Source: Eledone cirrhosa
Taxonomy: Eukaryota
Length of the DNA: 64,000 bases
Assembly: GCA_964016885.1 (NCBI GenBank)
Contig: OZ024746.1
Location: 18,972,001-19,036,000 of the forward strand
Direction: 5' to 3'
In this document: one piece after another, positions 15,893 through 58,425 of the stretch
Layout of the letters: the number at the start of each line of letters is the position of its first letter
How positions within the stretch are numbered: the stretch's first letter is position 1
Position numbers and translations under genes: made by a program
The notes under the pieces: model-generated
The model's input: only the letters and a program-made list of their open reading frames with translations
What the model was told of the DNA's origin: nothing
Databases searched by the model: none

Positions 15893-16293
15893 TCATCATC
15901 ATCGTTTTACGTCCGTTCTTCCACACTAGCATGGGTTTGACGGGTTGTCCTGTTGTGGGCAGTGTCTGGTCGGCTGACCATGCCTTGCTCATACAGGAAC
16001 TGATTCTGGCTTGATTTCAACAGCTGGATACCCTTCCTAACACCAACCTCATTTACAGTGAGTGCTGGGTGCTTTTTTGCCGTGGCACCTCCACGACCAC
16101 TTTGCAGTGGAATGATAGGAAATGAGATGATAGGGACCCCAGTCCCTATCATCTCATTTCTACAGCTGAGTAAACTGGAGCAATGTGAAATAAAGTGTCT
16201 TACTCAAGGAAACAACACATCACCCGGTCTGAGAATTGAACTCAACCTTTCGATTGCAAGGCCAATGCTCTAACCACTAAGCCATGTGCCTCC
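15893..16293 (-). mobile_element. SINE family A, full length (long-tail variant)
   Basis: Reverse complement of the 2675 and 37936 copies; (cat)n tail. Confidence 0.9.
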
Positions 16294-35999: not shown

Positions 36000-36740
36000 G
36001 AGACAGCAAAGTAGCAGAGTTGTTAGAACATTAGATAGAATGCTTAGTGGTATTTGTTTTGGCCCTCTGCTCTCTGAGTTCAAATCCCACTGAGGTCAAT
36101 TTTGCCTTTCATCCTTTCAAAGTCAATAAAAAAAAAAAGTACCAGTCTAGTACTGGGGTCAATTCTTCCTCTTTATCTCATTCTCAATTCCTTTCTCTCA
36201 TTCTTTCTATCCTTCTCTGGAAGAAATTTGCTTTATTCAGACCTGAAGAGGGGCTTCACCAGGTTTTAAAGTGCTACAGAAATACTGTATATCAATATGG
36301 TATGCCTACAACTCCCTCAGTAGTTACAAGACCTTGTATGCATGCATAAACCTTTTGGGAATTCTACTTTTAATATAGAATATGGAATCATATTAAAGGG
36401 CAACAATTTGCAACTTAAACTCTTTAAAGATGTTTTCCTTTTCACTCTTGGGGGAGTCTTAGGGGTGCCATATTGACACATAGCATTTCTAGGGCTTTTC
36501 TTTTTTAAACCTGGTTCCACCAGGCCTGAATACAGCAGAAGGATAAAGAATAAAAGGAAGGGAGAAAGAGATGTAGAGGAAGAATCGACCCCAGTACTTG
36601 ACTGTTACTTTTTTTTTATTGACCTTGAATGGATGAAAGGCAAAGTTGACTTTGGCATGATTTGAACTAAGAAAGTAGAAAGTCAGAACATATACTACAA
36701 AGCATTCTATCAGACATTCTAACAACTCTGCCAATTTGCC
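36000..36740. mobile_element. Inverted pair of SINE family B copies (+ 36000-36330, - 36445-36740)
   Basis: Both contain ctttgcctttcatcc.ttcaa.gtcaataaaaaaaaaagt in opposite orientations. Confidence 0.8.
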
Positions 36741-37935: not shown

Positions 37936-38340
37936 TGGAGGCACATGGCTTAGTGGTTAGAGCATTGGCCTTGCAATCGAAAGGTTGTGAGTTCAATTCT
38001 CAGACCGGGTGATGTGTTGTTTCCTTGAGCAAGACACTTTATTTCACTTTTTTTCACTTTATTTCACTTTATTTCCAGTTTACTCAGCTGTAGAAATGAG
38101 ATGATAGGACTGGGGTCCCTATCGTTCCACTGTAAAGTGGTCGTGGAGATGCCATGGCAAAAAAGCACCCAGCACTCCTGTAAAGTGGACGTGTAGGTGC
38201 CACGGCAAAAAAAAGCACCCAGCACTCACTGTAAATGAGGTTGGTGTTAGGAAGGGCATCCAGCTGTAGAAATCAAGCCAGAATCAGTTCCCGTCCCACC
38301 CTTGCAAGCAGGGAAAAGCAGACATAAAATGAAATGAATG
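37936..38340 (+). mobile_element. SINE family A, full length with internal duplication
   Basis: Family A head, core and tail. Confidence 0.92.
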
Positions 38341-42412: not shown

Positions 42413-42479
42413 CATGCATCATATATATGTATATCTATAATGCATGCATGCATCATACATATATACATATATATATATT

Positions 42480-43004
42480 CAGGTTTGTGGTTCACCACTG
42501 TATAGAGCTGGTCTATTCCGTATGGTCAATCGTAATGTAATAATATAGAGAGTACTCAACGTAAGGCAGTTCAACCGTCTTTGTTTTTGTAGTTGGTGGT
42601 GCTATTACGGAGTTAAATATTATAATGAAATGACAGGAGGCTGGATTTGGGTAAATCCTTGAAAGGTTTATTATACTATGATCATTTCAATGACCGGGTT
42701 CCGTATGAATCCGGTGATATCATCAGGTATTCGAAATATAATACGTGAATGTAATAGATAAAATCCATGGGGTTGAAAATCGAGGACCCGAGGGCGACCA
42801 GCTAAGATAGAGGGTGCAAGATAGCGGTCGCCCTCGGGTCCTCGATTTTCAGCCCCAGGGATTTTATCTATTACATTCACGTATTATATTTCGAATACCT
42901 GATGATATCACCGGATTCATACGAAACCCGGTCATTGAAATGATCATAGTATAATAAACCTTTCAAGGATTTACACAAATCCAGGCTCCTGTCATTTCAT
43001 TATA
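42480..43004. mobile_element. Fold-back element (~180-bp arms plus ~140-bp one-sided tail) between (TA)n tracts; Penelope-pLTR-like
   Basis: 42621-42799 is the near-perfect reverse complement of 42826-43004; tail contains gagagtactcaa; CTGATGA..GAAAC..GTC motif in the right arm. Confidence 0.75.
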
Positions 43005-43089
43005 TATATATATATATATATAATGCATGCATCTATCATCTTAATTTGTTTTCAATGCACTGTGTTAAAAATGCCACTTTTCTTCTACT

Positions 43090-54939: not shown

Positions 54940-55935
54940 ATGATCTGATAACAAAGTAGTGCTGGACCATCTTTACTATGAAATTGTAGTGAACTAATTT
55001 TTCTCCATGAATTTACCATAATGTTTAAAGGTGATCGACTTTTGATGTATGAATCTGGACCAGTTGAGAAGCATTTAGTGTAATATTTGCAACAAGATGT
55101 AATGAGAATGCTTGTCATAAAGTGAGCATTTGTATGCTGATAGAACATTTAAAACTGTTCCTTTATTATTCTATCAGCTGCATACCCTGCATGGATTAAA
55201 ATAAAAAGCTTCAATGTCATTTGTCTTTGCTTTATTACCTAACAAATCAAAAGAAACATACATAACATTTTTACAAGAGAGGAAGGAATTAGTCGACATG
55301 TGTGCTCTTGTCAATAATTTATTTTGAAAAAAAATTACCCAATGTAAAACAGAAAGGATGCTTTTTCTATTTTACACAATGTATTTTATGTAGAATTAAA
55401 AGCAGCGACTTGAAACAACAATATGAAACAGATCCAAATTTTTCTTTGAGTCTATGTATGTTACCAGCATTAGTATTTCTACCAGTAGACACAGTGATAG
55501 AGGTATTTGAGTTATGTGATAACATCTCTCCTGAAGGCCACAAGGTTCTGAATTATTTCAAAGACATGTGGATTGGGTGGTCAGGCAGAAGCCCGGCTCG
55601 ACAACCACCACATTTTTCACACACACACAATATGGAATTTGTACATTGAAGTTCTCCAGATGTTACCAAAAGAAAGAAAAAAAACAAGAACAAATAACTC
55701 AGTTGAAGGTTGGCACAGAGGTTTCCAAGCACAAGTGGCACTTCACTACCTCAATATTTCGATATTCATTAATTGTTGGAAAAAAAAAGAACAGAATTAT
55801 ATTGAGGCACAAACAGAGCAATATATATCAGGAAGGGAACCAGAAAAGTCAAATAAGTGATACAGTGAGCATAGTCAAAGCATTAAAACTTTCATCCTGT
55901 GGACATCCTCAACTATATTCATATAATTGCCCTTA
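54940..55935 (+). pseudogene. Decayed MULE/Mutator-like transposase
   Basis: Frameshifted motifs LLMYESG, HLYAD(R)TFKTVPLLFYQLHTLHG, GCFFYFTQ, YFKDMWIG, RTNNSVEGWH. Confidence 0.88.
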
Positions 55936-56404: not shown

Positions 56405-56717
56405 TAGTAGAAAGTGAGGTTTTTTTACAAAATGAAAAATAACCGAGGTGTCCTACACGAGTGAAAGTATAAAGAAAAAAGGATGAAATCGAAAATGCAA
56501 CTGGAGTCTTATTTAAAAAAATATTTATATATTTATTTGATTCCTTTACTGGTTTCACAGTTCTTCTGGTCTGTGGTTTTTCTCACATCTCACATCTGTG
56601 AGAAAAACCACAGACCCTCCATCTCAATTCTACTTTTGAAAAGCAGAAGAACTGCGAAACCGGTAAAGGAACCAAATAAATATATATATATTTTTTTTAA
56701 ATAAGACTCTAGTTGCA
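56405..56717. mobile_element. Branched fold-back element 1 (Penelope-pLTR-like)
   Basis: Outer IR 56496-56568 / 56644-56717; inner hairpin 56568-56616; one-sided tail 56405-56495; (TA)n flanks. Confidence 0.75.
56628..56671 (+). ncRNA. Minimal type I hammerhead ribozyme, U3-A8 variant (predicted)
   Basis: ttc(ta)ctt-TTGAAAA-gcag aagaa ctgc-GAAA-c cg g-TA-aaggaa: stems I and II pair, stem III is the palindrome ACCGGT, cleavage triplet GUA. Confidence 0.65.
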
Positions 56718-56727
56718 CTCTCTCTCT

Positions 56728-56768
<41 letters not shown>

Positions 56769-56774
<6 letters not shown>

Positions 56775-57130
56775 TAAAGAAAACGAAAAATCAGTGATGC
56801 ATCTGGACTTAATTTATTGCGTGTTACAATTGTTTCGCCGGCAGACACGGGTATTTCGCTCGGAGCAAATTTTATCAGTGATAAAATTTGCTCCAAACGA
56901 ACTACCCGTGTCTGAAAGAACCTGCAGCCGTAGAATCAGCCAGACCCATACAAGGACCATGTCTCGAGCTACCTGCCGGCGAAACAATTGTAACACACAA
57001 TAAATTAAGTCCAGATGCATCACTGATTTTTCGTTTTCTTTATACTATCTACACTCTACTCTGCTGAATATCGAGTGCTAATTTTGGCATACCGCCTATG
57101 GAAGCACCATAGCTACCATTATACACAACT
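56769..57130. mobile_element. Branched fold-back element 2 (Penelope-pLTR-like)
   Basis: Palindrome centred at 56878; outer arms 56769-56844 / 56973-57048; tail 57049-57130; (TA)n on both sides. Confidence 0.8.
56908..56996 (+). ncRNA. Degenerate minimal type I hammerhead ribozyme
   Basis: gtgt-CTGA(A)AGA-acctgcag...ctgccggc-GAAA-caattg-TA-acac; one extra A in the core and two stem II mismatches. Confidence 0.6.
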
Positions 57131-57150
57131 ATATATATATATATATATAT

Positions 57151-57554
57151 GGTGGCTGCCAACTCGTTTTCGAGTACGGCCACTACTTTATATCCATGTA
57201 GGAGAACCCCTACTGATGCGCTGAACGAGTGTGACTTTTTAGTCCAGCCAGCGACTTGAAAGCTCTGGTACAAACACTACACTTGTGACAATTATTGACA
57301 CATAGTGCTGGGCCCATGGTACCATGTGACGACAAATGCAGAGAGATCTCCAGATATAAAGCAATGCCTGTGCCGTGAAGCTTTTATAGTGAGCAAAGGC
57401 ACTGCACAAAGCCAGTCCCACTCTCTTAACCAAGATGATATTTACCAAAAAGAAGAACAAGTCAACATCATTGGATACCATCAGGGTTGCAGGTGTTATA
57501 TCAGAGTTTTCCTTCTCCATATATATATATATATATACATACGCATATATATAC

Positions 57555-57617
<63 letters not shown>

Positions 57618-58425
57618 CATATATATACATACACATGCATATATATATACACATATATACATATATACATATATATATATATACATATATATATACATAT
57701 ATATATACATATATATATACACACACATACATACATATACATATACACATATATATATACATATATATATATGTATATATATATACATATATATATATAC
57801 ATATATGTATATATGTATATATGGTGGCTGCCAACTCGTTTTCGAGTACGGCCACTACTTTATATCCATGTAGGAGAACCCCTACCGATGCGCTAAACAA
57901 GTGTGACTTTTAGTCCAGCCAGCGACTTGAAAACTCTGGTACAAACACTACACCTGTGACAATTATTGACACAGTGTTGGGGCCTTGGTACCATGTGACG
58001 ACAAGTCTAGAGAGATCTCCAGATACAAAGCAATGCCTGTGCCGTGAAGCTTTTATAGTGAGCAAAGGCACTGCACAAAGCCAGTCCCACTCTCTTAACC
58101 CGAGTTGATATTTACCAAAAAGAAGAATAAGTCAACATCATTGGATACCATCAGGGTTGCAGGTGTTATATCAGAGTTTTCCTTCTCCTAGAATTCTGCC
58201 TTGACAAAGGCTAAGGGGTCATCTCTCCCGGTGATTTTGGATGGCCATTGACTCTTAAGAGCTCCTTTGCCCTTTTACAGGTTTTGTTTTTAGTCCTGCA
58301 GGATGTCCAAAGTCACCCTCCTCACCAAGAATCCTTGGTGGGGTTGCCAGTTTAGTCGCCAACAACCCGACCATGGGACAGGTTGTACTGGGATACATGT
58401 TACCAGTAGCACCAACTGGTGACCT

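Follow-up and report, generated by a model that had tools for sequence, protein, structure and literature searches.

Hammerhead-bearing inverted repeats beside (TA)n in Eledone cirrhosa: probable Penelope-type insertions with likely copy-specific gaps in one arm

Introduction

Two long inverted repeats lie next to each other in the genome of Eledone cirrhosa, at positions 56405-57130 of the 64-kb stretch of contig OZ024746.1 analysed here (the window). Both stand beside (TA)n and both carry a tail on one side only. In each, one arm contains a hammerhead-like motif and the other arm is missing the segment that would hold the ribozyme core. How do two neighbours come to share so particular a defect?

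The setting is familiar from Penelope-like elements. Their insertions include an inverted, 5'-truncated copy and an optional tail, and they are biased toward (TA)n; the tail marks the 3' end of one arm (PMC8557442; PMC3846280). A curation guide treats inverted pLTRs and short 3' extensions as standard features (PMC8969392). For the hammerheads of these elements, a palindromic helix III and pairs of motifs 100-700 bp apart on opposite strands have been described (PMC4209133). In vitro, a Penelope-type protein extends both nicked strands, and the tail is the stretch between two reverse transcriptase (RT) start sites (PMC11167929). The way in which the inverted arm is made is still open (PMC8557442).

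An initial annotation of this locus proposed that the two elements share one architecture: a class of short elements, Penelope-derived or retrozyme-like, defined by recurrent loss of the core from one arm. Here we report an analysis of that proposal. The hairpins are real structures of a known kind from new families, further examples of a described insertion structure. We think it probable that the hammerhead-bearing ends of two different Penelope-like families inserted here as short, 5'-truncated copies, and that each copy lost a piece of one arm in a copy-specific skip over a hairpin. This reading starts from the geometry of the elements, two fixed family ends, TA/CA flanks, a copy-specific centre and an intact third element. 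As it stands its significance is small. What it offers is a method: where hairpins are young, differences confined to one arm can tell fold-back copying apart from two separate primings.

Materials and Methods

A loose type I hammerhead descriptor with palindromic helix III was run over the 64 kb, with 200 dinucleotide shuffles as the control; a strict version required a 4-bp helix II. Reading frames (stop to stop, at least 62 amino acids, low-complexity sequence removed; 150 frames in the window) were compared with Pfam. The family test covered element 2 only: positions 56872-57129 served as the reference at 80% likeness, and four of 23 listed sequencing runs were aligned to it. These were X1 (2248 contigs), the RAD run X21 (3140 raw reads, anchored at AATT sites), and X4 (23 contigs) and X6 (5 contigs), both from other organisms; X1, X4 and X6 give 2276 contigs in total.

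Results and Discussion

Geometry of the two elements

The description of both elements as palindromes beside (TA)n with a one-sided tail holds (Table 1). So does the statement that their sequences are unrelated: there is no extended similarity between them, and the best match is 15 of 16 AT-rich bases. Shuffled sequence folds much less well than either of them (z = -17.0 for element 1 and -21.9 for element 2, with none of 100 shuffles as good). The gaps in the left arms are also real features of the assembled sequence. In window coordinates, the left arm of element 1 is without 28 bases, the equivalent of 56616-56643, at a microhomology of 1 base. That of element 2 is without 61 bases, the equivalent of 56912-56972 or 56915-56975, at a CTG microhomology. 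In each element the one-arm gap results in the Y-shaped predicted fold that the annotation had described.

Table 1. Features of the three inverted repeats (positions in the window)
Feature	Position	Strand	Remarks
Third element, unrelated, same build	42479..43012	.	Tail on left; arms about 42621-42798 and 42825-43004
Element 1 tail, about 89 bases	56407..56495	-	One-sided, ends in (TA)n
Element 1 tail-bearing arm, gapped	56496..56587	-	28 missing bases = helix I 5' strand, core and first helix II base
Element 1 centre	56588..56596	.	9-base loop within a 7-base direct duplication
Element 1 tail-less arm, intact	56597..56717	+	Followed by (CT)n and (TA)n
Minimal type I hammerhead motif, element 1	56633..56668	+	Sole strict descriptor match in window
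(TA)n tract separating elements 1 and 2	56730..56770	.	Likely insertion target
Element 2 tail-less inverted arm, gapped	56771..56877	-	Limits approximate; gapped by 61 bases, junction about 56842-56844
Element 2 tail-bearing arm, intact	56876..57048	+	Limits approximate; similarity to family begins at 56876
Degenerate hammerhead-shaped motif, element 2	56908..56996	+	Loose descriptor
Element 2 tail, 79 bases	57049..57127	+	Family-wide end in TA/CA microsatellite

The two elements part company over which arm is gapped. On the minus strand, the gapped arm of element 1 leads into its tail, which lies on the left; in element 2 the tail lies on the right and comes after the intact arm. With the tail taken to mark 3', it is the tail-bearing arm that is gapped in element 1 and the tail-less arm that is gapped in element 2. 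The common "left arm" of the annotation is thus a different arm in each element, and the claim of a single architecture fails on this point. The outer end of element 2's left arm is the mirror of 57048, which is a family end point (see below).

If the gaps are set aside, 5 of 91 positions and one single-base indel distinguish the arms of element 1, and 4 of 108 positions those of element 2. Each element has two CpG-type changes, confined to one arm (the gapped arm of element 1, the intact arm of element 2), a pattern such as neutral decay gives. One of the two in element 1 disrupts the helix III palindrome of its gapped arm.

A third, unrelated element in the window serves as an internal control. 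It has TA flanks and a 135-base tail, and its core, GAAA, palindromic helix III and AATAAA are intact in both arms. An open frame of about 44 codons runs across the hammerhead in its arms, with the stop codon within AATAAA. Its central spacer is about 26 bases long, compared with 9 in element 1 and 3 in element 2. Palindromes with short spacers are less stable (PMC7999016), and the two gapped elements are the ones with short spacers, though three cases make this no more than a hint. The centres of element 1 (56588-56596) and of the third element (about 42799-42824) contain 7-base direct duplications, possibly the scar of re-priming at the turnaround.

Could a strong hairpin have caused an error of sequencing or assembly that shows as one or both gaps? 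Both are known solely from the window's assembly, both fall in the left arm by assembly coordinates, and no independent read in the element 2 runs gave its junction, the best of those runs containing 0.60-0.62 of the sampled words. Against this, the gapped arms have substitutions of their own, CpG-type changes included, and clean microhomology joins, and the third element, a longer palindrome, was assembled without a gap. We regard an artefact as very unlikely.

Hammerhead motifs

The loose descriptor found four sites in 64 kb, all within the three long palindromes and two of them in the third element (shuffles: mean 0.16, maximum 3). The strict descriptor matched once, in element 1 (shuffles: 0.01). 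A CUGANGA-type core had been reported for both elements. Element 1 bears this out in variant form: in its core (56636-56642) C3 and G8 are replaced by U3 and A8, two positions reported to covary in this way in Schistosoma Penelope-like elements (PMC4209133). It is accompanied by a 4-bp helix II closed by G-C, GAAA at 56656-56659, a palindromic helix III, GUA at 56663-56665 and a contiguous 3-bp helix I. Judged by these sequence features, element 1 is a good candidate for a minimal type I hammerhead, with the conserved core in its U3-A8 variant, GAAA, NUH and G10.1-C11.1.

For element 2 the report does not stand. Its motif has a 4-bp helix I, an interrupted helix II (56921-56927 with 56973-56979), GAAA at 56981-56984, a palindromic helix III and GUA at 56990-56992. 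The 8-base core (56912-56919) contains one additional base, and A faces C at 10.1-11.1, where G10.1-C11.1 is expected; the element thus lacks the conserved core and closing pair of a minimal type I hammerhead. In a natural hammerhead variant, an insertion after A6 resulted in low activity (PMC3088659). AATAAA follows each hammerhead motif, and the palindromic helix III, which would allow folding as a dimer, is present in the intact arms of all three elements. A comparison with Rfam, suggested as a check, returned no hammerhead family among 54 matches in the whole window (E up to 1) or among 33 matches in 56560-57060 (E up to 10).

Would the gap leave one cleavable strand, as had been suggested? 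The predicted energies speak against it. Forcing the hammerhead helices in a single-arm transcript is predicted to cost 4.0 kcal/mol for element 1 and 5.5 for element 2; in the whole-element transcript the cost rises to 33.4 and 46.9 kcal/mol, because GAAA, helix III and the cleavage site remain in the long duplex. A hairpin transcript would therefore be predicted to lock the ribozyme off, gap or no gap. Insertion in vitro did not require hammerhead cleavage (PMC11167929).

The family of element 2

The family of element 2 is very abundant. Its contig depths add up to as much as 4 x 10^5, where single listed contigs have 8-13; this sum is not a copy number. Two end points are fixed. At 57048, 21 X1 contigs run into a (TA)n microsatellite; at 57127, 79 bases away, 35 contigs and 874 reads run into a TA/CA microsatellite. 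These ends agree with the in vitro result, in which the tail is bounded by two RT start sites. They also extend the proposed TA targeting from the locus to the family. Two further opposite-strand joints are among those listed.

The fold-back point of the present copy is not general, since other sequence continues 5' of 56876 in 24 X1 contigs, one X4 contig and one X6 contig, that is, in three organisms. With the family running on 5' of this copy's centre, the label "non-autonomous" is unproven.

The core varies among the reads. T is replaced by C at 56913 in 138 of 389 and A by G at 56917 in 230 of 396. There is also a second subfamily: 272 reads have different sequence before 56932 with more core changes (agreement 0.66), among them changes of U4 and A6. 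In one X4 contig, changes at 56926 and 56974 together appear to be a compensatory replacement of A-U by G-C in helix II. From these alignments, helices I, II and III seem to be retained in the family as its core bases drift. The hammerhead-shaped fold may no longer cut. Such drift would fit cleavage being dispensable for insertion in vitro (PMC11167929).

Kinship to Penelope-like elements

We hold with high confidence that the hairpins are of Penelope type, as had been proposed. The minimal hammerhead with palindromic helix III, the inverted tail-less copy and the tail all point this way. Both arms form a head-to-head inverted, 5'-truncated pair, the truncation being evident from the family of element 2; that family has an optional one-arm 3' tail arising from two fixed end points; and three of three elements are flanked by TA, in addition to the microsatellite ends of the element 2 family. 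Described Penelope-like insertions (PMC3846280; PMC8557442) likewise have a head-to-head inverted copy, a one-arm tail, a (TA)n target and a palindromic junction. The present elements differ from them in having arms of just 100-250 bases, no ORF that we could see and, in two of three, a one-arm gap; their tails are 79-135 bases long, whereas 30-40 are described for Penelope-like elements.

The motifs resemble the minimal hammerheads of Penelope-like elements (PMC4209133) in their type I layout, short helix I, palindromic helix III and opposite-strand neighbours, and element 1 also in its U3-A8 core. Element 1 differs from the account given there in its 4-bp helix II and the lack of a bulged base after A9. 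Element 2 differs in the extra core base, the A/C at 10.1-11.1, the long interrupted helix II and a core that varies.

Non-LTR retrozymes (PMC7229834; bioRxiv 10.64898/2026.07.22.740005) are also short and non-coding, with a type I hammerhead motif and a proposed Penelope origin. They are head-to-tail tandems with one hammerhead per unit, whereas the elements here are single head-to-head pairs: self-comparison of the window, searched for head-to-tail tandem units, gave solely inverted matches for elements 1 and 2. The description "retrozyme-like" is therefore unproven.

It is highly improbable, in our judgement, that the elements are instead remnants of fold-back DNA transposons, or other repeats with chance hammerhead-like words. 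Such an origin would agree with the missing ORF link, the empty Rfam result and the non-canonical core of element 2. It does not explain why four of four descriptor matches fall in three palindromes (shuffle mean 0.16) with AATAAA after each, nor the one-sided tail and copy-specific centre, nor the apparent compensatory change in helix II. The one-sided tail and a centre that other copies do not have in common likewise led us to reject a MITE or fold-back DNA transposon; target duplications are unreadable within (TA)n.

Linkage to RT and GIY-YIG frames, another suggested check, was not found: neither domain is among the Pfam matches of the 150 window frames, which comprise four weak matches below the cut-off. 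The element 2 frame had no homologue among longer proteins (best Atlas score 0.76, uninformative). Two matches of the third element's frame, both to repetitive, unrelated proteins, were rejected as repeat-driven. A motif of 17-19 bases had three metagenome and three viral matches, which were dropped as chance because the flanks showed no similarity to the elements; other motif scans gave 0 matches. Three short motifs are absent from the supplement text of PMC8557442, with cells searched to 400 characters.

Are the gaps recurrent?

If the missing core defined a class, it should be met again in other copies. No joint skipping 56915-56975 is among the joints listed in any of the four runs, nor do the joints listed for 3140 raw reads and 2276 contigs include one, of whatever length, that skips the core. 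The raw reads cover 56913 to a depth of 389 and 56917 to 396, so coverage does not step down at the gap. In X1 and X21 the inner arm is covered less than the core segment, the opposite of what is expected were half of all arms gapped; subfamily divergence also lowers inner-arm depth. The test is a blunt one, in that even this locus's own gapped arm is absent among the listed joints and the raw reads stop at AATT sites, and a small gapped subfamily may exist.

A class defined by recurrent core deletion thus finds no footing: the gapped arm differs between elements 1 and 2, the third element keeps both cores, and among the joints listed for the element 2 family the gap does not show as a trait. 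We consider it quite likely that the gaps are copy-specific. Microhomology deletions are reported to disable Penelope copies in Adineta (PMC3846280). A description of one-arm core deletion in Penelope hairpins was not found in the literature covered, which lay outside subscription papers and Repbase.

A stronger form of the class proposal would have the Y-shaped elements move as they are, as a non-autonomous family whose core-less arm is fixed and useful. Clean gaps in two adjoining elements invite this idea. It is nevertheless scarcely credible, since the gapped arms are opposite relative to the tail, other copies of element 2 run on 5' of the centre with no fold-back there, core-segment depth in that family is not below inner-arm depth, and the whole-element ribozyme fold is predicted to be disfavoured by 33-47 kcal/mol.

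How surprising is it that both gaps cover the core? A randomly placed gap of the observed length does so at 22 of 73 positions in element 1 and 23 of 89 in element 2; with weighting by microhomology the figures are 445 of 844 and 25 of 78. The joint chance is 0.08-0.17, with the intact third element left out of the count. Two gapped elements in three are above expectation, yet not significantly so.

There is one regularity. A local hairpin, predicted from weak folds, accompanies each gap: one end of the gap falls inside the hairpin's 3' strand, and the other end lies 7-12 bases 5' of it. Such geometry fits polymerase slippage across a hairpin, whether by the element's RT or by host replication. 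In element 2 the hairpin is helix II; in element 1 it is an alternative hairpin of 9 bp, which spans the core on the minus strand. The suggested template switch at stem II therefore keeps its hairpin but, for element 1, not its stem.

This regularity also raises the possibility that the Penelope RT itself recurrently skips the structured hammerhead region when one arm is made, so that core-less arms, with varying breakpoints, would be a by-product signature of insertion. In addition to the two gapped elements in three and the shared hairpin geometry, this idea can draw on the extension of both nicked strands in vitro (PMC11167929), by which the two arms could be independent products, and on position 56902, where the arms of element 2 differ by what is a common dimorphism of the family (101 of 265 reads), as if from two templates. 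The absence of a skip joint over the core among those listed for the element 2 family counts against it; so do the different helices cut by the two gaps and the chance of joint coverage given above. We judge it unlikely. If it were true, a gap confined to the tail-bearing arm, as in element 1, would mean that the arms come from two independently primed strands and not from fold-back copying.

How the hairpins may have formed

Under the preferred reading, a copy-specific skip in each of two Penelope-type insertions, the events would run as follows. A Penelope-type protein would nick (TA)n, and reverse transcription would begin at the outer end of the tail and halt after 100-250 bases. An inverted second arm, ending at the inner, tail-less point, would be made at insertion, either as the new DNA folded back on itself or as a second strand was primed. 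One arm would then drop 28 or 61 bases between microhomologies of 1-3 bases as a polymerase skipped over a small hairpin. For element 1, whose gap lies in the tail-bearing arm, the loss would fall after insertion, provided that the first arm served as template for the second; we infer that either the gap is later than the copying or the arms were made independently.

Other features of the window

Several further repeats were seen in the window. A 369-base unit occurs twice (57150-57518 and 57822-58188) at 95% identity with a TA-rich microsatellite between. Broken frames at 55293-55860 resemble a MULE transposase remnant; Atlas scores are 0.97 to unnamed eukaryotic clusters and 0.87 to the nearest named cluster, in which 14% of members have PF10551. 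Pfam gave no MULE match there in the filtered window frames, and the resemblance is best treated as a lead. The loose inverted repeat at 36006-36739, about 730 bases long and 69% identical, perhaps consists of two opposed repeat copies. Three sub-threshold tRNA matches of 27.5-28.1 bits (2681-2738, 16230-16284 and 37946-38003) are probably the heads of tRNA-derived SINEs, and a near-perfect short hairpin of 42 bases lies at 16119-16160.
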